A DNA stretch of 64,000 nt from an uncultured Halieaceae bacterium (GTDB lineage Bacteria; Pseudomonadota; Gammaproteobacteria; Pseudomonadales; Halieaceae), in NCBI GenBank assembly GCA_964022665.1, contig CAXIDF010000002.1, forward strand, positions 207,797-271,796. The letters are read 5' to 3'. The translations under genes and the position numbers were made by a program. Positions 10,770 to 47,769 of the stretch are shown here, piece by piece. Position 1 is the first letter of the stretch; every line of letters begins with the position of its first letter. Below the pieces are notes generated by a model. That model was given only the letters and a program-made list of their open reading frames with translations, was not told where the DNA came from and did not search any database.

Positions 10770-10773
<4 letters not shown>
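8929..10773 (-). CDS. sppA: Signal peptide peptidase SppA, 67K type
   Basis: Duplicated S49 peptidase domains, the second containing MGAIAASGGYYIA. N-terminal membrane anchor. I prefer the ATG at 10773 (MSRPSPIRRFF...), which forms an ATGA overlap with the upstream stop, over the track start at 10815. Confidence 0.85.
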
Positions 10774-12126
<1,353 letters not shown>

Positions 12127-20033: not shown

Positions 20034-20179
20034 TCGGGATCCCGCCGTTAGCAGGACAAAATACGCCTGCAATGGACACAGTTATTGGCTTGTCAGTGTA
20101 AGCGGCCTATACTCGCGTTGCAAACACAGCCCGCCTTGCAATGTAACAATCTGTTACCCAGAGTCGGCGGGCATGTTTG

Positions 20180-20270
20180 CAAACCTGGGGGTGGCTTCGG
20201 CCTGAGATACCGCTTGCGGTAAACCCTTTGAACCTGACCCGGTTAGGACCGGCGTAGGGATAGGTGCACG
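20180..20270 (+). promoter_or_regulatory. TPP (THI-box) riboswitch
   Basis: GGGGTGGCTTCGGCCTGAGATACCGCTTGCGGTAAACCCTTTGAACCTGACCCGGTTAGGACCGGCGTAGGGA carries the conserved CUGAGA, ACCCUUUGAACCUGA and CGUAGGGA elements in canonical order. It lies in the 5' leader of the TonB-dependent receptor gene. Confidence 0.85.
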
Positions 20271-20328
20271 TCTCCTGTTCATTCCGCATATCCAACCGGT
20301 TCTCTTGCTGTTCTTAATGGAGAACCCG

Positions 20329-36946: not shown

Positions 36947-38071
36947 TCAAACCAGATTGCGCAGTGCCTGCATCGGCTCCATGAACGGAAGGCCCAGGGC
37001 CTCCGCCACCGCCGCATGGGTCACCTGCCCGGCATGCACGTTGAGGCCGTTGCGCAGGTGCTCATCCTGTTCCAGCGCGGCGAGCACACCGTGCCGGGCC
37101 AGCTTCACCGCATAGGGCAGCGTGGCATTCGTTAATGCCATGGTGGAGGTTCTGGCCACCCCACCTGGCATGTTCGCCACACAGTAGTGGACCACGCCGT
37201 CCACCACATAGGTCGGGTCCTGATGCGTGGTCGCCCGGCTGGTTTCGAAACAGCCACCCTGATCAATGGCCACATCCACCATCACCGCGCCCTTCTTCAT
37301 TTTCGCCACCAGGTCGCGACTGATCAGCTTGGGCGCTGAAGCGCCCGGGATGAGCACAGCACCGACCACCAGATCAGCCTGCAGCGCATAGCGCTCCAGC
37401 GCCTCCTTGGTGGAGTAGACGGTTTTCAGACGGCCGCCAAACAGCATATCCAGTTCCTTCAGGCGGTTGAGGTCGCGGTCCAGCAGCGTGACATCCGCGC
37501 CCATGCCCATGGCCATGCGCGCGGCGTTGATGCCTACTACGCCCCCACCGATCACGATGACCTGCGCAGGCTCCACGCCCGGTACGCCGCCCAGCAGTAC
37601 GCCATTGCCGCCCTGGGCCTTTTCCAGGTTGTGCGCACCGGCCTGAATGGCCATGCGACCCGCTACTTCGCTCATGGGGGCCAGCAGGGGCAGACCGCGG
37701 TTCACCGAGGTAACCGTCTCGTAAGCGATGCAGGTGGCGCCGGATGCCAGCAGCGCCGCTGCCTGTTCCGGGTCGGGCGCCAGGTGCAGGTAGGTAAACA
37801 AGAGTTGGCCGGGGCGCAGCATGCGGCATTCAATCGGCTGCGGCTCTTTAACTTTGATGATCATTTCCGCCTCCGCGAATATCGCTTCGGCGTCAGCAAT
37901 GATGTCGGCACCCGCATCCCGGTACTGGGCATCGTCAAAGCCTATCGGCTCGCCGCCATCACGCTGCACCAGTACACGGTGGCCATCGTGCACCAGTTCT
38001 CCCACACCGGCCGGCGTGAGACCAATGCGATACTCGTGATTCTTGATTTCCTTCGGTACGCCAATCAGCAT
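36947..38071 (-). CDS. ald: Alanine dehydrogenase
   Basis: [21 protein letters not shown]-terminus. NAD fold [15 protein letters not shown] at 38071 with a GGAG RBS. Confidence 0.9.
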
Positions 38072-38231
38072 GTGCCACTCCAAAAGCAGATTAAACTACC
38101 CGGCATGCTAGACGGGCTGGTTGCGTTGTTGCAAATATGCCTGAATCGAAACCCGAAAGAAATTTTGCAGCTGAAAATGGAGCAAATTGAGGCCACCTTG
38201 ACGCCGCAGCGACCCGAAGGAGCAATGACAC

Positions 38232-39104
38232 TCAATCCAGGTCGTGATCGATGTCCTTGTACTGCAGGTTGGTCAGCTGCTCGGCGATCAAACCGATGAA
38301 AAACACCACCAGACCCGCCAGCAGCAACAGGGAGCTCATGTTGCTGAAACGCAGCAGCCCGCTGCCGAACGCGCCCAGCAGATAGTTGGCCAGCCCCAGG
38401 CCCGCCAGCAGCACTGACAGCGGAAAGTACACCTTGAGTGGGGAGTACAACGTGCCGATCTTGAAGATGATCAGGAAAAAACGCACCCCGTCTCGCAGGG
38501 GGCTGATGTGGCTCTTGCCCACCCGCTGTTCTACCGCGATGGGCACAAAGCCCACCGAATAGCCCGCGCGGAAGAAGGCCATGGTCGACGTGGTGGGGTA
38601 ACTGAAGCCGTTGGGCAGGAGGTAGAGAAAGCTCAGGAACTTGCGCCGGTTTACCGCCCGAAATCCGGAGGTGAGGTCGTCAATGCGCCGGTTCACCATC
38701 CAGCTGGCCAAGCGGTTGTACAACGTGTTGGCGCTCCAGCGCGCAATGCTCGCCTGGGACGACAGCCCCGAGCGCGCACCCACGACCATATCATAACCCT
38801 GAGCCATGGCCGTGAGCAGACTGGCGATATCCGCCGGGTCGTGCTGGCCATCACCGTCCATGAACACCAGTACATCGCCCGTTGCCACACGCGCGCCGGA
38901 CTTGATCGCGGCACCGTTGCCCTTGGGGTAGGGGTGCGAAACCACCGTTGCCCCCGCACTGCGGGCCACCGCGGCAGTGTCGTCCTCGGAGCCGTCGTTG
39001 ACGACAATCAGCTCGGCGTCGGGATAGAGGGTGCGTAGGCGTGGCAGAATCGGCGCCAGCCCGAGTTGCTCATTCCTGGCGGGTATTACAATGGAAATTC
39101 GCAA
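38232..39104 (-). CDS. GT2 polyprenyl-phosphate glycosyltransferase (GtrB / DPM1 / ArnC-like)
   Basis: ISIVIPARNE. DxD region VFMDGDGQHDP. TSGFR. Two C-terminal TM helices ending in GLIAEQL, the GtrB/ArnC-like topology. TTG start immediately follows the upstream TAG. Confidence 0.8.
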   Translation of the reverse strand: MRISIVIPARNEQLGLAPILPRLRTLYPDAELIVVNDGSEDDTAAVARSAGATVVSHPYPKGNGAAIKSGARVATGDVLVFMDGDGQHDPADIASLLTAMAQGYDMVVGARSGLSSQASIARWSANTLYNRLASWMVNRRIDDLTSGFRAVNRRKFLSFLYLLPNGFSYPTTSTMAFFRAGYSVGFVPIAVEQRVGKSHISPLRDGVRFFLIIFKIGTLYSPLKVYFPLSVLLAGLGLANYLLGAFGSGLLRFSNMSSLLLLAGLVVFFIGLIAEQLTNLQYKDIDHDLD

Positions 39105-40985
39105 CTAGTCAGTCTCCAGGTAAAGCGCGAGTGTCTCTTGGTCTACAACAGACAACGCTCCAGCGTCCTGCAGCGTCAACAACTGCTGCTTGAGCCCGTC
39201 AGCCTCGTCCACTTTACCCAATGCAGTACTGAAATGCAGCTGCATTAAGAGCCCTCTCGTTGCCTGGGGCGACTCGGCGAGAAATCGTGCCGTGTATTCA
39301 TAGGCATTGGCATAGCGGCCCAGCGCGTTTTCCAGCACCGCGAGCAAGGCGTAGATATTGCCTGAAGCGGTCGCTTCTGCCTGAGGCTGCAAATATACCG
39401 CTGCAAACGTGTCTGCCAGTGCAGGACCGTCCAACAGGCGGCACTCGTTGTTTTGCAACATCTTCACCAGGGTGTGCAACGTGGGTACGGAGCTCAAAGG
39501 TCGCTCGGCCAAAAGTGCCTGCCGATTCGGCTCACGCGCTGCCGACAGCGGTTGGTCGGCAATACAACTGAGCGCAAGATTGCGCATGTAATGGTCGCCA
39601 GCCCGCTCTCGCGTGTAGTCATGCGCACGCGCGGAGTATTCGAGCGCACGTTCGAGGCTACCCACTCTCGCATACATCACAGCCATATCAGCATTGGCAC
39701 GAAAAGAAGTGGGGTGTGCATTGATCTGATTGAAACGCAGCAGGTAACTGTTTGACCAGATCTCCACCTGGGAGCTGGTATTGAAACTCAACACAACCAG
39801 ACCGAGCGCAAGATACGCCATGACCGGCGGTGCCACCCTGGGCCACCGCTGCTGCAGCTCGGCGAGCAAAAGTGCCGCCAGCAGGAAAACCGCGATCCCC
39901 GGGAAATAGTTGCGGTGTTCAAAATACAGTTCCAATGGCAGCACACTCGACTCGACGCTTTGCCCCACCAGATAGAAAAGAATACAAAAGGCCACTCGGC
40001 GCCCAGGCACGAAGACGGACGACACCGCGACTGCAATCAGAACCCCACCCCAGGCAAGCAGCGCATGCAGCGTTGTTACAGGGTTCGTTAATGAATGAGA
40101 TAGCAGAACATCGTCGTGATAAAGCCCCATGCGTGCTGTCTGCGGCCACACCAGCTGAGCGAGGTAATCCCACAGAATTCTGCCTTGCGTCAGCAACCGC
40201 TGCTCAAGGGTGAATTCGCGCAAGGTGTAGTGCGCCAGAAAGCGCTCGGGGGCCAGCAGGAAAACCGAGACAACCGATACCGCCCCCAGGACCAGGAGAC
40301 CCAGCGCGATGGCACACAGTCTGCGATCAACAACCCCGGAGCGCCGACAACCAAACCAGAGCAGCTCGAGAAGCAGCAACACAGGAAGAACCACAATGCC
40401 GTTCTCCTTGGCGAATACCGCCAGCGCTGCACAGACAGCAACAACGGTCATGCGCCAGATGCCACGCTGCCCGCGAACATAAGCCGCTCGCCAGTGCAGA
40501 TAGGCGATCAGCGTCAGCAGCATGAAGGTGCACGCCAGCATGGCCATGCGTTGCACGGCGTAGAGCACCGTACTCACCCACAACGGCGACACCAGCCACA
40601 GACCTGCAGCCAGCAGTGCTACCGCCAGACTGCGCGCATACCCGGAGCCACGCAGCAGCAAAAAAATAAACCACGCAAGCAACACGCCATTGACCACATG
40701 CAGCGCAATGTTGATCGACTTGCTCCAGCGCAAATCCGCACCCAGCAGCGCGCGCTCGGCAACGAAGGTGGCCATTGTCACAGGCCGCCCCAGCGGCCCT
40801 GAGCCGTCACCCAGTACCTGCTCAACGAGCTGTCGGGAATCCACGTCCGTTTCCAGCAAGGTGACGCTGGTCCGGTCATCGAGCAATGCCGGGCCGTGAA
40901 TGCCCGGGGCATACAGCCATGCCGTAGCAGCCAGTAGCAAGCCGAACGTTGCAATCAACCAGAAGTTGGTGAAACGAACTGACAT
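39105..40985 (-). CDS. GT-C-like polytopic membrane protein with C-terminal TPR domain (TMTC/PMT-like), paralog B
   Basis: First-loop acidic motif ALLDD. GPLGRPVTMATF. VSTVLYAVQRMA. KENG. FEHRNYFPGIAV. C-terminal TPR-like repeats. The ATG at 40985 overlaps the paralog A stop (TGATG). Confidence 0.7.
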   Translation of the reverse strand: MSVRFTNFWLIATFGLLLAATAWLYAPGIHGPALLDDRTSVTLLETDVDSRQLVEQVLGDGSGPLGRPVTMATFVAERALLGADLRWSKSINIALHVVNGVLLAWFIFLLLRGSGYARSLAVALLAAGLWLVSPLWVSTVLYAVQRMAMLACTFMLLTLIAYLHWRAAYVRGQRGIWRMTVVAVCAALAVFAKENGIVVLPVLLLLELLWFGCRRSGVVDRRLCAIALGLLVLGAVSVVSVFLLAPERFLAHYTLREFTLEQRLLTQGRILWDYLAQLVWPQTARMGLYHDDVLLSHSLTNPVTTLHALLAWGGVLIAVAVSSVFVPGRRVAFCILFYLVGQSVESSVLPLELYFEHRNYFPGIAVFLLAALLLAELQQRWPRVAPPVMAYLALGLVVLSFNTSSQVEIWSNSYLLRFNQINAHPTSFRANADMAVMYARVGSLERALEYSARAHDYTRERAGDHYMRNLALSCIADQPLSAAREPNRQALLAERPLSSVPTLHTLVKMLQNNECRLLDGPALADTFAAVYLQPQAEATASGNIYALLAVLENALGRYANAYEYTARFLAESPQATRGLLMQLHFSTALGKVDEADGLKQQLLTLQDAGALSVVDQETLALYLETD

Positions 40986-42964
40986 CAGGGGTTCGCCCCG
41001 GCGAAGAGCTGACGTTGCAGTGGTAGCTGCCGACGATTTGTGTCGTACTGCATCCATTGCCCGGCGGAGCGCAAGAGTCCTTCGGCGTCACCGAGCTCAC
41101 TGTACTGGGCGAGCAGATACGGGTAATAACTCAGCTGTCCCGGTGCGCGTGCAAGCGCATCCTCAAGGACGGCAAGCAACTCGCCTGGCGGTGCGCCACT
41201 GGCTTGCAGGTACGAGTAACGGAGGCTGTCAAGATCAGACGGCGTAAGAGAATAGCGCCCCAGCGCTGCAAATAACCTGTCCACCTCGTCTTCCTCCGTA
41301 GCGCACTTGCCGTCACCCATACACTCGGCCAACACCTGCAGGGCATTCCTGTCCGATGCCTTGAGTACGCGGCCAGGCAAGGCCGCCTGCAGCGTTGAAA
41401 GCCAGTCGGTTTGCGCACCCAGTTCCGGGAAGAAAAGGCTATCCAGGTAGTACAGCATCACCAACGCACCGATATCCGCCGGGTCCCGCTGGTGCATCAG
41501 CTCCATATAGTGTCGCCCAATGGCCAGGCTTGCTTGTGCATCCTCCGCGGAAAGACCCAGCGACTCACGCAAGCGATATTGGCGCAACAGGGCATTGCCA
41601 TAGAAATAGTTGGAACGCACCGAGGCCGGATGACGAGCAACGTTGGTGCGCGACAAGGTGAAGTCATCGGACCAGGTGTGACTGCGCACACCCAACAGCA
41701 GGGCAAACACCGCAACCAAGGCAACGGACGCTGCTGCACAACGGGCAGGCGATAAACGGCGCAGCAGTTCAACCAGCGCAAAACCCAGCAGCAGGCACAC
41801 GCCAATACTCGGCAGATAGTTGCGATGCTCGTAAACCATCTCCAGGGCGAGAAAGCTGGACTCCATGCTGTGGCCAACGAGATAGATCAATACCGCCAGC
41901 AACAACAGCGGCCAGCATGAGCGCTGCCAGATGGCCAGCACCAGCAGCGCCACCCAGGCAAGCACCGCAATCAGCGTCGACACGGGATTGAGCCAGCCCG
42001 ACGACAACACAATATCATCGTGCTGAAAACCCATGCTCAGAATATTGGGCCAGGCGATCCAACCCACATACTGCCACAGCACACGGGACTGTGTGAGGAG
42101 ACGCTCCTCCAGCGTAAAATTACGCTGCGCATACCCCCCCAGAAACGTTTCCGGCGAGAGCCAGAAAATCAGTGCAATCAACGCCAGCGGCAGCAACAGC
42201 AAGAACCAGCCGGCGAACGCCAGTAGCGGCTGGCGACGCCCCGCCCAACGGCCACGGTATACCGCAACCTCCACCGCGGGCACCAGCCACAGCAGCAGCG
42301 CACCATTTTCCTTGCTCAGCACGGCAAACATCACCACCAGGAACAGCCAGAGCGCCGCGGCGACCACCTCTTCAACACCCGCGCCCTGCACCGCCCAGCG
42401 CGAACGCCAACGCACAAACAGGAACAGGCCCAGCACGACGAACAGCGTCGACAACTGCGCCATGCGTTGCACGGCGTAGAGCACTGTGGACACATGCAGC
42501 GGGTGCAGCAGCCACAGCCCCGCTGCCACGGCTGCGACCCATCCAACGGAAGTGTGTAAACGGCCTTGCGACACCCATTCCGCGAGCAGTGTGCGAAAGA
42601 GAAAAAACAGTAATACGCCAATCGTAAGGTGAATGGCGATATTGCCCAGCTTCAGGGAGCGCGCGCTGAAACCATCATCAAGCGCGTGCTGCAGGGCAAA
42701 GGACAGCATGGTCAAGGGGCGGCTGAGCGGGCCTGCATTGGAGCTGAATGCCGCCGTGCGCCACTCGTCAAATCGCGCGCCGGATATCTGTACCAATTCG
42801 TTGCCGCTGAGTGCGGGTGTGTCGTCAAAGAGGAAGTCGCCACCGGCGTTGAGCATATAAAGTGCCGCTGCAATACCCAGCAAGAGCGCCACCAACCCGT
42901 GGGGTTGGGCACTTTTGACGACAGTTGCCAAGGTACTGGGTTGCACGTGGCATTCTCTAAACAC
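40985..42964 (-). CDS. GT-C-like polytopic membrane protein with C-terminal TPR domain (TMTC/PMT-like), paralog A
   Basis: FLFDDTPAL first-loop motif. GPLSRPLTMLSF. VSTVLYAVQRMA. KENG. YEHRNYLPSIGV. C-terminal TPR-like repeats. Clearly paralogous to 39105..40985. Confidence 0.7.
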   Translation of the reverse strand: MFRECHVQPSTLATVVKSAQPHGLVALLLGIAAALYMLNAGGDFLFDDTPALSGNELVQISGARFDEWRTAAFSSNAGPLSRPLTMLSFALQHALDDGFSARSLKLGNIAIHLTIGVLLFFLFRTLLAEWVSQGRLHTSVGWVAAVAAGLWLLHPLHVSTVLYAVQRMAQLSTLFVVLGLFLFVRWRSRWAVQGAGVEEVVAAALWLFLVVMFAVLSKENGALLLWLVPAVEVAVYRGRWAGRRQPLLAFAGWFLLLLPLALIALIFWLSPETFLGGYAQRNFTLEERLLTQSRVLWQYVGWIAWPNILSMGFQHDDIVLSSGWLNPVSTLIAVLAWVALLVLAIWQRSCWPLLLLAVLIYLVGHSMESSFLALEMVYEHRNYLPSIGVCLLLGFALVELLRRLSPARCAAASVALVAVFALLLGVRSHTWSDDFTLSRTNVARHPASVRSNYFYGNALLRQYRLRESLGLSAEDAQASLAIGRHYMELMHQRDPADIGALVMLYYLDSLFFPELGAQTDWLSTLQAALPGRVLKASDRNALQVLAECMGDGKCATEEDEVDRLFAALGRYSLTPSDLDSLRYSYLQASGAPPGELLAVLEDALARAPGQLSYYPYLLAQYSELGDAEGLLRSAGQWMQYDTNRRQLPLQRQLFAGANP

Positions 42965-43015
42965 GGAGGTCCGGGAGTGTATACCGCTTTAGGGAGCAGG
43001 CAAAAATTCGGGGCG

Positions 43016-43039
43016 AAAAAAAGCCCGGCGATGCCGGGC
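43016..43039 (-). terminator. Rho-independent terminator downstream of pilA
   Basis: GCCCGGC-GAT-GCCGGGC stem-loop, followed on the minus strand by seven T. It lies 23 nt after the pilA stop. Confidence 0.65.
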
Positions 43040-43061
43040 TTTTCGGTACTTCAGCTAACTA

Positions 43062-43514
43062 TTAGCCGCGGCAGTTGGCCGGCAGGTATTTCACTTCAAC
43101 TTGGCTGGTGGTACCGGGCTTGCATTTCCAGTCGATAGAACGATCGGCTCGGGTAGTCCCTGAGAGAACGAACGAATCACCGCCGCCACCGGGGATCACA
43201 CCCGGCTGTACCTTCGCACGCAGCAAAGGACCAACGTTAGCAGTGCTCGTATAAATGATCGACGCTACGATTTCCTTGTCGGGGTTGCCGTTGATACCGG
43301 CCGCCGCTGCAGTGGGGAGGTTACCATTGGCTGCGTAATACTCCGCAATCGTGGTCTTCGCTTCAGCCAGCGTCGCCAGCGGCTCAGACATCTTCGCACG
43401 CACTGTGTAGTCCTGATACGCCGGCAGCGCGATGGCAGCCAGAATACCCACGATCGCGATAACGATCATCAGTTCGATCAGGGTGAAACCCTTTTGTACA
43501 TTCTGCATTTTCAT
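43062..43514 (-). CDS. pilA: Type IVa major pilin
   Basis: Leader MKMQNVQKG followed by [28 protein letters not shown]-terminal Cys...Cys loop ([18 protein letters not shown]). ATG at 43514 with an AGGAG RBS. Confidence 0.9.
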
Positions 43515-43587
43515 GTTCCTTACTCCTGTCCCCTGCGGGGTGTTTGGTCCGCACGCTTGCTCGGAGAGCGCGTAGCCAGCGGAACGA

Positions 43588-43603
43588 AGCATGAAACGTG
43601 CCA
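43588..43603 (-). promoter_or_regulatory. Candidate sigma-54 (-24/-12) promoter of pilA
   Basis: The minus strand reads TGGCACGTTTCATGCT. GG and GC have the exact consensus spacing (TGGCACG-N4-TTGCW). About 75 nt upstream of the pilA ATG. pilA is RpoN/PilR-dependent in Pseudomonas. Confidence 0.55.
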
Positions 43604-43731
43604 CATGCAATCAAGCTCAGTAGATGCAGATATTTTTCAATTAAAACAATACGTTAAGGTATGTGATCGAGCGCAGGCCGCGGCGGCTCCGGCGCTGGCC
43701 TGCCCATTTTGGGTCATAGAGCGACCGGATG

Positions 43732-43746
43732 TGACAATTTTTGTCA
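43732..43746. promoter_or_regulatory. Perfect palindrome TGACAA-TTT-TTGTCA in the pilA/pilB intergenic region (candidate enhancer or operator)
   Basis: Lies about 130 nt upstream of the putative -24 element. It contains TGTC half-sites like those reported for PilR binding. Confidence 0.35.
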
Positions 43747-43919
43747 TAGTTTTACAGTCGCGGTTTGGCTCCGCCGTCAGAAAACGACAGCCGAAATCGG
43801 CAAAAATCCATATAAAATCATGCTTTTACAACGTATTCAGGGTATTAGCATGAACTTTCTGTGGGTATACTTGTTGGAGAGTCAACGAAAATAATGCGAC
43901 CCCCAGGGATGCAGGCAGG

Positions 43920-45638
43920 ATGAACGAGAGAGCAATTGGGCAGCTGAGTGGCCTGGCAGGACGCCTTGTCGTTGAGGGGCTACTGAGCGCAGAGGCGGCC
44001 AAGGAAGCACAACGCGAGTCAACGTTTCAGCGTGTGCCTCTGGTCAAGTACCTCGTTGACAAGCTCGACCTCGACAGCCACAAAATTGCCGAGGTCGCCT
44101 CCAATGAGTTCGGTGTACCCCTGTTCGACATCCACGCTTTCAATATGGCCACTCTGCCCACCGGCCTGGTCGACATCAACCTCGTTACCAAGCACCACGC
44201 ACTGCCACTGTTTCGCCGTGGCAACCGCCTGTTCATTGCCGTTTCCGACCCCACCAATCTGGCCGCGCTCGACGAAATCAAGTTTCACACTGGCGTAAAC
44301 ACCGATGCCATCCTGGTGGAGGAGCGCAGCCTCAACACGGTCATTACCGAGTGGACGGAATCGCAGGACAATCTCTCCGAAGGCCTGGGCGACCTGGAGT
44401 CGGAAGACTTCGAGAACATCGATATCTCCGGGGGCGAGGACAGCAGCAAGGAGGATTCAGGGGCCGAGGCGCTGGATGAAACCCCCATCGTGCGCTTTAT
44501 CAACAAGGTGCTGATCGACGCCATCAAGCAGGGCGCTTCGGATATTCATTTCGAGCCCTACGAGAAAAACTACCGGGTGCGCTTCCGCACCGACGGCATT
44601 CTGCGCGAGGTGGTGAAGCCACCCAAGAACCTGTCCGCACGTATGGCGGCACGCCTGAAAATCATGTCGCAGATGGACATCTCCGAGCGCCGCGTGCCGC
44701 AGGACGGTCGCATTCAGATGAAGCTGTCACGCAACCGGGCCATCGATTTCCGGGTGAACACCCTGCCCACTCTGTTTGGCGAAAAGGTGGTGCTGCGTAT
44801 TCTGGACCCGAGCAGCGCGCAAATGGGTATCGATGCACTGGGCTACGAAGAAGACCAGAAGCAGATGTACCTGGACGCCTTGAGCAAACCGCAGGGCATG
44901 ATTCTGGTCACCGGCCCCACCGGCTCAGGTAAAACGGTGTCGCTGTACACGGGCATTAACCTGCTGAACCAGCCGGAACGCAATATCTCCACCGCGGAAG
45001 ACCCGGTGGAAATCAATATGGAAGGCGTCAATCAGGTACACGTGAACCCCAAGGTGGGGCTCAATTTTGCCGAGGCCCTGCGCTCCTTCCTGCGCCAGGA
45101 CCCGGACGTGATCATGGTGGGTGAGATCCGCGATCTGGAAACCGCTGAAATCGCCATCAAGGCGGCGCAGACAGGCCACTTGGTGTTATCCACCCTGCAC
45201 ACCAACAGCGCCGCAGAAACCGTGACCCGTCTGCTCAACATGGGGGTGCCCTCGTTCAACCTGGCCACTTCCGTCAACCTGATTATCGCCCAGCGTCTGG
45301 CCCGCCGCCTGTGCAAGGAATGCAGTGAGCCGGCCGAGCTGCCCACTGAGGTTCTGCTGAAAGCCGGCTTCACCGAGGAGCAGCTGGAAGGCGCCGATAT
45401 TCGCCGCGCCGTGGGCTGCGACCTCTGCACAGATGGCTACAAGGGCCGCGTCGGGATTTACGAGGTGGTGCGCGTCACCCCGACCATCGCCCAGCTGATC
45501 CTGTCCCAGGGCAATGCCATGGAAATCCACAAGCAGGCCAGGGCCGAGGGCTTCCACGACCTGCACCAGGCGGCACTGGTCAAGGTGCTCAAGGGCATGA
45601 CCAGCCTGGAGGAAGTACACCGGGTGACCACCGATTAG
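43920..45638 (+). CDS. pilB: Type IV pilus assembly ATPase PilB
   Basis: GspE/PilB family. Walker A GPTGSGKT. Tetracysteine CKEC...CDLC. 572 aa. Confidence 0.92.
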   Translation: MNERAIGQLSGLAGRLVVEGLLSAEAAKEAQRESTFQRVPLVKYLVDKLDLDSHKIAEVASNEFGVPLFDIHAFNMATLPTGLVDINLVTKHHALPLFRRGNRLFIAVSDPTNLAALDEIKFHTGVNTDAILVEERSLNTVITEWTESQDNLSEGLGDLESEDFENIDISGGEDSSKEDSGAEALDETPIVRFINKVLIDAIKQGASDIHFEPYEKNYRVRFRTDGILREVVKPPKNLSARMAARLKIMSQMDISERRVPQDGRIQMKLSRNRAIDFRVNTLPTLFGEKVVLRILDPSSAQMGIDALGYEEDQKQMYLDALSKPQGMILVTGPTGSGKTVSLYTGINLLNQPERNISTAEDPVEINMEGVNQVHVNPKVGLNFAEALRSFLRQDPDVIMVGEIRDLETAEIAIKAAQTGHLVLSTLHTNSAAETVTRLLNMGVPSFNLATSVNLIIAQRLARRLCKECSEPAELPTEVLLKAGFTEEQLEGADIRRAVGCDLCTDGYKGRVGIYEVVRVTPTIAQLILSQGNAMEIHKQARAEGFHDLHQAALVKVLKGMTSLEEVHRVTTD

Positions 45639-45672
45639 AAACAGCGTAACCACGTGCTGAACGGACGAGACT

Positions 45673-46890
45673 ATGGCAACCAACGCGGCAAAAAACGTAT
45701 TTGTGTGGAACGGCGTCGATCGCAATGGGCGCACCACGCAGGGTGAAATCACCGCCCAGAGTTCGGGGGTAGCCCGCGCCCAACTGCGCACCCAGGGCAT
45801 CAAACCGAAAACGGTCAAGAAAAAGGCCAAGCCCCTGTTCGGCGGCAGCGGCAAGCCCATCAAGCCCGCAGACATTGCCATTTTCACCCGGCAACTCGCC
45901 ACCATGATGAAGGCGGGTGTGCCTCTGGTGCAGAGTTTTGACATTGTTGCCGAGGGGCTGGACAAGCCGCGCATGCGCGAACTGGTGGTCAGCATCAAGA
46001 ACGATGTGGCCTCCGGTTCCGGCCTGGCGCCCTCGCTGGCCAAATATCCACGGCAGTTCGACGATCTCTTCTGCAGCCTGGTGGCCTCGGGTGAAGCCTC
46101 CGGTACGCTGGAAGTGATGCTGAGCCGGGTGGCAACCTACAAGGAAAAAACCGAGCAGCTCAAGGCCAAGATCAAGAAGGCCATGACCTACCCCACCGCC
46201 GTGGTAGTCGTGGCCATCGTTGTGACAGCCATCCTGTTGATCAAGGTCGTGCCGCAGTTTGCGGAAACCTTCCGCAGTTTCGGATCGGACTTGCCCGCGT
46301 TCACACTGATGGTACTGGGGCTATCGAATTTTGTGCAGGAGTGGTGGTTCATCATCCTCATTGGCTTGATCGCTGCTGGTTTTGGTTTCAAGGAAGCCAA
46401 ACACCGCTCCGTGGCTTTTTCGGAGGCACTGGACCGATTGGCACTGCGCCTGCCCGTGGTTGGCGGCATCGTGCACGATGCGGTCGTGGCCCGTTTCTCG
46501 CGCACACTGGCCACAACCTTCGCCGCGGGTGTGCCGCTGGTGGATGCGCTGAACTCTACAGCCGGTGCCGCCGGCAACTCGGTGTACAGCAAGGCGATTT
46601 TGCAGATCCGCGATGACGTCACCACCGGTACCACGCTCTACCAGGCCATCCGCGCCACCGGACTGTTCCCCAACATGCTCCTGCAGATGGTTTCCATTGG
46701 CGAGGAATCCGGCGCCCTGGACGACATGCTGGACAAGGTTGCCCAGCATTACGAAGAAGCGGTTGATAATGCGGTGGACAGCCTGAGCTCACTGATGGAG
46801 CCGATCATCATGTCGGTACTCGGCGTGCTGGTGGGCGGGCTCATGATCGCCATGTACCTGCCGATCTTTATGCTGGGTTCGGTCATCTGA
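45673..46890 (+). CDS. pilC: Type IV pilus platform protein PilC
   Basis: Duplicated GspF/T2SSF domains. 405 aa. Follows pilB. Confidence 0.92.
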   Translation: MATNAAKNVFVWNGVDRNGRTTQGEITAQSSGVARAQLRTQGIKPKTVKKKAKPLFGGSGKPIKPADIAIFTRQLATMMKAGVPLVQSFDIVAEGLDKPRMRELVVSIKNDVASGSGLAPSLAKYPRQFDDLFCSLVASGEASGTLEVMLSRVATYKEKTEQLKAKIKKAMTYPTAVVVVAIVVTAILLIKVVPQFAETFRSFGSDLPAFTLMVLGLSNFVQEWWFIILIGLIAAGFGFKEAKHRSVAFSEALDRLALRLPVVGGIVHDAVVARFSRTLATTFAAGVPLVDALNSTAGAAGNSVYSKAILQIRDDVTTGTTLYQAIRATGLFPNMLLQMVSIGEESGALDDMLDKVAQHYEEAVDNAVDSLSSLMEPIIMSVLGVLVGGLMIAMYLPIFMLGSVI

Positions 46891-46902
46891 GGACAACGCC
46901 GC

Positions 46903-47769
46903 GTGCTTGACGTCTTCCTTGAGCAGCCCGGGTGGCTGGCCACCTGCCTGCTGCTGTTCGGGCTGGTCGTCGGCAGCTTTCTCAATGTGGTGGTGTACCG
47001 GTTGCCCCTGATGATGCAGGCGCAATGGCGCAGGGATTGCTGCGAACTATTGGAGCAGCCCGCGCCCGAGACTGCGCCACTCAGCCTGGCCGCACCCAAC
47101 TCCCATTGCCCCCAATGCAAGGCGCCCGTGCGCCCCTGGCAGAATATACCGGTCGTCAGCTACCTCTTGCTCGGCGGGCGCTGCGCCCAGTGTCGTGTGC
47201 GTATCTCCCCGCGCTACCCCATCGTGGAAGCCGTCACCGGGCTGACGACACTGTGGCTGGGGCTGCACTATGGCCCCACGTTACAGCTGGCCGGCGCTGT
47301 GCTGCTGACCTGGGCGCTGATCAGCCTCACCCTCATCGACTTCGACACCCAGCTCCTGCCCGATGACATCACCCTGCCGCTGCTCTGGCTGGGCCTCGCA
47401 TTCAACCTCTCGGGCACGTTCGTGCCCATCGCGGACGCTGTCCTCGGCGCCATGGCGGGCTACGGCATTCTGTGGAGCGTGTACTGGCTGTTCAAGCTGG
47501 CCACGGGGAAGGAAGGCATGGGCTATGGCGACTTCAAGTTGCTCGCAGCGCTGGGCGCCTGGCTCGGCTGGCAGGCGATGCCGCTGGTGGTTCTGCTCTC
47601 GTCGCTGGTGGGCGCGGTGGTGGGTATTGTGCTCATCGTGGTGCAGCGCCGTGGCCGCGACATCCCCATGCCCTTCGGCCCTTATCTGGCCGCGGCTGGC
47701 TGGCTGGCGCTGATCTGGGGTGAACCCATTCTCGATGCCTGGCTCGGTGCCAGCGGCCTGCCCGGGTAA
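46903..47769 (+). CDS. pilD: Prepilin peptidase / N-methyltransferase PilD
   Basis: N-terminal CxxC...CxxC (CPQC, CAQC). Catalytic GMGYGDFKL motif. GTG start. Confidence 0.9.
   Translation: MLDVFLEQPGWLATCLLLFGLVVGSFLNVVVYRLPLMMQAQWRRDCCELLEQPAPETAPLSLAAPNSHCPQCKAPVRPWQNIPVVSYLLLGGRCAQCRVRISPRYPIVEAVTGLTTLWLGLHYGPTLQLAGAVLLTWALISLTLIDFDTQLLPDDITLPLLWLGLAFNLSGTFVPIADAVLGAMAGYGILWSVYWLFKLATGKEGMGYGDFKLLAALGAWLGWQAMPLVVLLSSLVGAVVGIVLIVVQRRGRDIPMPFGPYLAAAGWLALIWGEPILDAWLGASGLPG

Follow-up and report, generated by a model that had tools for sequence, protein, structure and literature searches.

We analysed a 64,000-nt stretch of DNA from an uncultured Halieaceae bacterium (contig CAXIDF010000002.1; hereafter the window), in which three minus-strand genes follow pilA, the gene for a type IVa major pilin. 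The first two encode paralogous membrane proteins, MP1 and MP2, and the third encodes a family 2 glycosyltransferase (GT2). The trio is probably dedicated to the O-glycosylation of pilin, with a lipid-linked monosaccharide as the donor. The initial annotation, made from the nucleotide sequence, had proposed such a pathway for the pilin or other periplasmic and surface proteins, and the O-glycosylation reading was supported by the family of the GT2, by a predicted GT-C-like fold of MP1 and MP2 and by the linkage of the genes to pilA; it is synteny that points to pilin as the acceptor.

Linkage of the trio to pilin genes

The strongest evidence for the function of the module was its genomic context. 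A scan of a collection holding one genome per species returned at least 594 related stretches, and the best 80 loci were examined for their spread. These came from Halieaceae, Lysobacter, Marilutibacter, Rhodanobacter, Moraxellaceae, Thiomargarita, Thioploca, Sedimenticola, Pseudohongiella, Arenicellales, Methylococcales and others. Context counts were taken from 84 loci, with the evaluable loci as denominators (78 for the pilin, 69 for the GT2). A pilin gene was found directly upstream on the same strand at 68 of 78 loci and within 1.5 kb at 72; ten loci had no pilin directly upstream, six of them having none within 1.5 kb, and at two more loci without a nearby pilin the upstream sequence was too short to evaluate. 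A GT2 orthologue (at least 45% identity, within 7 kb) accompanied the transferase genes at 54 of 69 loci, and several other loci carried a different GT2. Four Halieaceae contigs showed an identical order, pilD-pilC-pilB and then pilA-MP-MP-GT2. The neighbourhood survey that had been suggested with the initial annotation thereby indicated that the trio is linked to pilA and is not scattered over unrelated loci.

The same counts bear on a broader possibility, namely that MP1 and MP2 are general periplasmic protein O-glycosyltransferases, comparable with actinobacterial PMT and eukaryotic TMTC enzymes, for which pilin would be one substrate or none and the adjacency to pilA would result from co-regulation or history. 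TPR domains such as those predicted in both proteins are able to bind a variety of partners, the wider family is very large (an exhaustive representative search counted 65,698 representative clusters at E 1e-3 or better), and the ten loci without a directly upstream pilin would fit. We nevertheless consider general glycosylation unlikely: the directly upstream, same-strand pilin recurred in several orders, the evolutionary rate of the MPs was close to that of the variable pilin head, and the closest characterised relative by architecture, TfpW of Pseudomonas aeruginosa, glycosylates pilin.

The rates were compared with a related locus, L007. Identity between the window and L007 was 71-83% for the MP domains and 65% for the PilA head, but 95% for GT2 and 94% for PilB; among close relatives in general, MP1, MP2 and the PilA head diverged much faster than GT2 and PilB/C/D. 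This matched fast divergence fits a co-evolution of the MPs with the pilin without proving it. The region was also low in G+C, at 0.57-0.60 over pilA-MP-GT2-pilB (window 38000..46000) versus 0.62-0.65 in the flanks. Together, the low G+C and the fast divergence of PilA and the MPs are in keeping with a variable pilin cassette, one that genomes may exchange.

The number of transferase genes differed among the 84 loci: one copy was present in 36, two in 47 and three in 1, the last being a tandem array (L042:4957-10761, plus strand). In a neighbour-joining tree, computed without support values, the paired copies grouped together at several loci outside Halieaceae (L050, L055, L056, L061, L067, L073, L074, L076, L081 and L083). 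The tree suggests that the Halieaceae pair, with its fixed gene order, stems from one old duplication and that the gene was duplicated independently several times in other groups. At six loci, an extra bona fide PMT/PMT_2 gene lay inside or beside the module, and in three of the loci it was placed between MP2 and GT2 on the opposite strand (coordinates in Table 1). Its product is a GT-C protein of about 420 amino acids (aa), positive for both Pfam PMT and PMT_2 and devoid of a TPR domain; besides the two MPs, it may be a third enzyme that uses the lipid-linked sugar of the module.

The synthase and the predicted fold of the membrane proteins

GT2 matched PF00535 at 1.8e-26, carried a DGD motif within ...FMDGDGQHD... 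and ended in two hydrophobic helices, in agreement with the earlier description of a GtrB/DPM1-like enzyme with a DxD motif and two C-terminal transmembrane (TM) helices. Sequence searches of PDB matched it to ArnC (2e-12), a Pyrococcus dolichyl-phosphate mannose synthase (DPMS; 1e-11) and Synechocystis GtrB (2.4e-11); the alignment with the last (5ekp) spanned residues 2-280 and included the C-terminal membrane hairpin. GT2 was also similar to E. coli GtrB (E 8e-16) and E. coli ArnC (E 7e-19). Judged by these full-length matches, GT2 belongs to the polyprenyl-phosphate sugar synthases of GtrB/ArnC/DPMS type. It stayed below every NCBIfam equivalog cut-off, the best scores in bits against the cut-off being 124/325 for AglJ, 85/375 for a Dol-P-hexose transferase, 78/370 for PpgS and 55/529 for ArnC, and no specific sugar is assigned to it.

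A GtrB-like synthase next to a GT-C enzyme is the classic arrangement for periplasmic O-antigen glucosylation (PMC11127046), and the best phage-family match of GT2 was phrog_841, 'GtrB-like O-antigen conversion' (2.5e-26, positions 2-289 of the 309-position profile). The module could be a Gtr-type seroconversion system with a glycan as its target, a side-chain sugar being added in the periplasm to O-antigen, core or exopolysaccharide. This is very unlikely in our judgement. The GT-C enzymes of classic Gtr systems are serotype-specific, and their genes accompany gtrA and gtrB in prophage regions; E. coli yfdGHI is such a locus and has no link to pilA. HMMER found no similarity of the MPs to E. 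coli YfdI, and no gtrA was found in the window by phmmer, which is a weak test. Moreover, a Gtr-type system would leave the pilA linkage and the TPR domains unexplained.

MP1 and MP2 shared 34% identity over about 600 aa (E 1e-54). The initial annotation had listed conserved blocks in two paralogues, and all of them were present in the alignment: FLFDD/ALLDD, GPLSRPLTM/GPLGRPVTM, VSTVLYAVQRMA, KENG and YEHRNYLPSI/FEHRNYFPGI. These motifs were common among 134 relatives from the 84 loci. In an alignment of 26 sequences that contained both paralogues, residues D47, D48, G78, R82, P83, K218, E219, H315, D316, E379, H380, R381, Y383 and P385 (MP1 numbering) were invariant; the DD pair lies just after TM1 in both proteins and corresponds to D36 and D37 in MP2. 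The charge pattern, with basic short loops and acidic long loops, fits an N-in, C-out topology, which would place all invariant polar motifs and the TPR domain on the periplasmic side.

The AlphaFold model of full-length MP1 (pLDDT 86, pTM 0.85) consisted of 11 TM helices followed by an all-helical solenoid, and the model of the MP2 membrane domain (pLDDT 80.8, pTM 0.87) also had 11 TM helices. In Foldseek searches against PDB, the MP1 solenoid matched TPR proteins best and the membrane part matched STT3. The C-terminal TPR-like domain noticed initially was thus recovered in the predicted structure; Pfam TPR matches were below the cut-off in MP1 and MP2 and above it in distant homologues. With the predicted MP2 membrane domain as the query, STT3A (8b6l_I) was matched with a TM-score of 0.52, a probability of 1.00 and E 3.5e-3, and TM-scores were 0.48 for yeast STT3, 0.39 for AglB, 0.37 for the GT-C-like PIG-U and 0.35 for Pmt1. 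Among the 50 matches listed, a probability of 0.87 or higher was reached only by GT-C-fold proteins (TM-score 0.35-0.52), whereas other proteins, including MFS and ABC transporters, had TM-scores and probabilities below 0.2. GT-C was the sole plausible match for this domain, and the modelled fold is supportive rather than conclusive. The structure prediction that had been proposed as a check therefore gave 11 TM helices, a TPR solenoid and a GT-C-like membrane fold, and a non-GT-C architecture was not seen.

The proposed profile searches fared differently: against PMT_2, DUF1736 and ArnT they were negative or weak for both large proteins. DUF1736 (PF08409) gave no match at E 1 or better in 26 family members. 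With a smaller MP profile, hhalign gave 18% probability against five Pfam-positive PMT-like neighbours; with a 133-sequence profile, the alignment to Pfam-positive PMT-like neighbours was colinear at 57% probability and E 1e-4. These profile comparisons are not enough to claim sequence homology between the MPs and PMT-like proteins. Because the hidden Markov model checks were negative or weak, the GT-C assignment rests on the predicted fold, the topology and the motifs.

Several results weigh against a pilin-glycosylating GT-C module. Pfam and NCBIfam contained no match to the membrane domain of MP1, MP2, 26 relatives or 10 distant homologues; among PDB sequences, neither single-sequence queries nor two profiles found one; HMMER did not link the MPs to ArnT, E. 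coli YfdI or the PMT-like neighbours; hhalign of the smaller MP profile against E. coli ArnT gave 2% probability; and no Foldseek match of the MPs reached E 1e-3. The faster divergence of the MPs could also reflect nothing more than a looser constraint on membrane proteins. A phmmer search with E. coli GtrA, ArnE and ArnF found no match among all open reading frames (ORFs) of the window, a weak test whose outcome agrees with the earlier caveat that a GtrA-like flippase is lacking. Finally, a strong terminator separates pilA from the module. The terminator is no objection, because pilin-accessory cassettes typically have one after pilA (PMC11841053), and it probably attenuates rather than blocks read-through.

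It was also considered that MP1 and MP2 might be non-catalytic pilin chaperones or assembly factors, as proposed for TfpY, with the TPR domain holding the pilin and GT2 being unrelated. TfpX, TfpY and TfpZ, which occupy the same position among pilA accessory genes, are not enzymes (PMC11841053), and no curated glycosyltransferase profile matched the MPs. However, the invariant acidic, basic and histidine motifs are predicted on the periplasmic face and arranged as in GT-C enzymes, the predicted fold is GT-C-like, and the MP genes are translationally coupled to a lipid-sugar synthase whose orthologues are co-located at most evaluable loci. A chaperone role thus appears most improbable, and we retain catalytic glycosyltransferases as the preferred reading.

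Database names of the orthologues included 'protein O-mannosyl-transferase' (JGI, many) and 'Glycosyltransferase RgtA/B/C/D-like' (UniRef, one). Among cultured bacteria, the closest relatives were Haliea salexigens and H. alexandrii, whose MPs are 91-93% identical, and protein identity to these two marks the source organism as Haliea-like within the Halieaceae. The best 150 matches of the representative search were close relatives only, with no named remote member among them. PADLOC gave no matches, and no MP homologues were found on plasmids. Two candidate identities were rejected. An O-antigen-ligase-type (TfpO/PglL) enzyme was discarded, as Wzy_C was absent from MP1, MP2 and 26 relatives and no such fold was among the 50 Foldseek matches listed; the cyanobacterial pilin glycosyltransferase Ogt, a soluble GT41 enzyme, was discarded as a counterpart.

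A scan for ORFs of up to 230 aa with several hydrophobic helices found one candidate in the window, which was unrelated: it lies at 10773..11264 on the minus strand, is 164 aa from stop to stop, has 3 predicted helices and lacks similarity to GtrA, ArnE and ArnF. The longer GT2 genes at other loci were not GtrA fusions.

Gene layout and expression signals

The features of the locus are listed in Table 1. Both junctions described initially read exactly so: the MP1/MP2 junction is cccTGAtgtca, in which stop and start share one base (TGATG), and at the MP2/GT2 junction, gacTAGTTGcga, the TTG start of GT2 abuts the TAG stop of MP2. By these junctions, the MP genes and GT2 are translationally coupled. 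The likely start of MP1 is the GTG at 42946, which gives a protein of 653 aa; it was favoured because close MP1 homologues have 653 aa.

PilA begins with the leader MKMQNVQKG/FTLIELM. Its C-terminal part contains a disulfide loop and the tail KYLPANCRG, a sequence common to pilins adjoining related modules. The terminator after pilA has a 12-bp stem followed by U7. The sigma-54-like element is found some 75 nt upstream of pilA, and such matches were not enriched across the window; the case for a sigma-54 promoter of pilA is weak, its position being the sole support. At several related loci (L069, for instance), a gene for a PilR-type sigma-54 activator was seen upstream of pilA. The pilB, pilC and pilD assignments were made by Pfam in related loci with the identical pilD-pilC-pilB / pilA-MP-MP-GT2 arrangement. 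Elsewhere in the window, a TPP riboswitch (Rfam RF00059) at 20177..20278 on the plus strand exceeded the gathering score of 54.3 with 70.1 bits; it has no connection with the trio.

Table 1. Features of the pilA locus in the window and extra PMT/PMT_2 genes at related loci (L numbers; coordinates within each locus)
Feature	Position	Strand	Remarks
GT2, GtrB/ArnC/DPMS-type polyprenyl-phosphate sugar synthase (by sequence)	38232..39104	-	290 aa
MP2, paralogue of MP1	39105..40985	-	626 aa; same architecture as MP1
MP1, predicted GT-C-fold glycosyltransferase	40985..42964	-	11 TM helices and C-terminal periplasmic TPR (predicted)
Intrinsic terminator between pilA and the accessory genes	43016..43044	-	-21.1 kcal/mol, z -3.05
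pilA, type IVa major pilin	43062..43514	-	150 aa; Pfam Pilin 1.1e-14, N_methyl 9.8e-11
Candidate sigma-54 (-24/-12) element TGGCACGTTTCATGCT	43588..43603	-	pattern match, 2 mismatches
pilB, pilC, pilD (assembly ATPase, platform protein, prepilin peptidase)	43920..47769	+	ORFs, divergent from pilA
Extra PMT/PMT_2 gene	L003:12820-14205	-	
Extra PMT/PMT_2 gene	L019:8809-10203	-	
Extra PMT/PMT_2 gene	L024:8846-10513	-	
Extra PMT/PMT_2 gene	L029:8949-10541	-	
Extra PMT/PMT_2 gene	L046:1859-3406	+	

Proposed mechanism and comparison with known systems

We propose the following sequence of events. At the cytoplasmic face of the inner membrane, GT2 would transfer a sugar from a nucleotide sugar to undecaprenyl phosphate, and a flippase encoded outside the locus would move the lipid-linked sugar to the periplasmic face. 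There, MP1 and MP2, whose active site would face the periplasm and consist of the DD, RP, KE, HDD and EHRNY motifs, would pass the sugar to Ser/Thr residues in the periplasmic head of PilA at a stage when the inner membrane still anchors the pilin, and their TPR domains would hold the pilin. The use of a polyprenyl-phosphate donor by the MPs is suggested by context, namely the coupled GtrB-type synthase here and the GT2 orthologues counted above. The two paralogues might divide the work by site or by step, or pair as a heterodimer; PMT enzymes act as dimers (PMC7759382). The accessory genes would be expressed through partial read-through of the pilA terminator.

To our knowledge, few enzyme types are known for pilin glycosylation, namely TfpO/PglL-type transferases and TfpW. 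If the proposal is true, the trio represents a third and widespread route, consisting of a lipid-monosaccharide synthase and one to three TPR-bearing GT-C transferases. We tentatively suggest, as a possibility that falls short of an even chance, that the MPs are members of a very large bacterial family, so far uncurated, of TMTC-like GT-C enzymes that act naturally on type IV pilin. On this reading, the family, paired with its own GtrB-type synthase, would make monosaccharide O-glycosylation of pilin common in environmental Gammaproteobacteria instead of a rarity of a few pathogens, and obligate heterodimers, as in Pmt1-Pmt2, would be indicated by the repeated tandem duplications. The poorly understood TMTC class would then gain a bacterial model that is amenable to genetics and has a known substrate. 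Since the MP membrane domain lies outside Pfam and NCBIfam, the genes now carry names such as 'hypothetical' or 'TPR protein'; with a curated model, the annotation of many genomes would change, and the trio could serve as a simple bacterial test bed for TMTC-like enzymes and for protein-glycosylation engineering. Pilin glycosylation alters the surface chemistry of the pilus, and in Pseudomonas it protects against pilus-specific phages (PMC11841053).

Four known systems share parts of this design. The Gtr system (GtrA flippase, GtrB synthase and Gtr* GT-C enzyme) follows the same logic, in which an undecaprenyl-phosphate sugar is used in the periplasm (PMC11127046); unlike it, the trio has TPR-bearing GT-C proteins, a pilA linkage and probably a protein acceptor, and no GtrA was found. 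TfpO/PilO has the same position after pilA and the same outcome, pilin O-glycosylation, but TfpO/PglL (Wzy_C) belongs to an unrelated family and transfers preassembled oligosaccharides linked to undecaprenyl pyrophosphate.

The layout of the MPs resembles the one published for TMTC1-4, eukaryotic O-mannosyltransferases of the GT-C/PMT clan, in which 11 TM helices are followed by a non-cytoplasmic TPR region (PMC7801869). The TMTC motifs are DD and SHKSYRP (loop 1), RxD, KE(T/Q)xxT (loop 3), DW (loop 4) and ERxxY (loop 5, between TM9 and TM10) (PMC7801869). By inspection, the MPs have counterparts of four of the six in matching loops, FDD, GPLxRP, SKENG and EHRNY, whereas loop 4 contains HDD in place of DW and there is no clear equivalent of RxD. 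The MPs also differ from TMTC enzymes in lacking a DUF1736 match, in their presumed donor lipid (undecaprenyl phosphate versus dolichyl phosphate) and in their presumed acceptor (pilin versus cadherin domains).

A cyanobacterial system may be analogous to the trio. The gene for Sll1696, a protein of unknown function, is a frequent neighbour of pilin genes in cyanobacteria. Glycosylation of PilA1 is proposed to require Sll1696, and in the Synechocystis pilA1-pilA2-sll1696 arrangement a mutation of the pilA1 terminator raises glycosylation (PMC8546353).

By published description, the closest characterised system appears to be TfpW of P. aeruginosa group IV strains (Pa5196 and PA7). TfpW (AAM52060.1) is a pilin D-arabinofuranosyltransferase; its gene lies directly 3' of pilA and is needed for pilin arabinosylation, and its authors' model proposes that it acts as a dimer (bioRxiv 10.1101/2020.04.19.049825). 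As compared by description, TfpW (646 aa), which is assigned to GT-C, and the modelled MPs (626-653 aa) have an equal layout, in which 11 TM helices precede a periplasmic TPR domain at the C terminus and the first periplasmic loop carries a conserved DD(x). The TfpW motif YX6PFX7P, however, was found in none of the 134 MP relatives; MP1 shows only Y-x6-P within YEHRNYLP. When homologues were sought with a Moraxellaceae family member as the query, none of the best 120 matches was named as an Acinetobacter or Pseudomonas protein. The donors also differ. TfpW uses polyprenyl-phospho-D-arabinofuranose made by a PRPP/DprE1/DprE2 pathway encoded elsewhere in the P. aeruginosa genome, whereas the donor enzyme of the trio is a GtrB-like GT2 within the operon, which implies that the sugar would be drawn from a nucleotide sugar. 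ORF clustering within 7 kb at the 84 loci gave no recurrent PPPRS/DprE1/DprE2-like cluster, although most clusters were unannotated and no direct search was made; with the pathway encoded elsewhere in P. aeruginosa, its absence from the loci would not decide the matter. The transferase of the trio, unlike TfpW, is duplicated at many loci. The literature searched contained no account of a GtrB-like synthase that is paired with a GT-C/TPR enzyme linked to pilA. The principle has a precedent in TfpW, and the GtrB-like partner, the lack of YX6PFX7P and the frequent duplication of the transferase set the trio apart.

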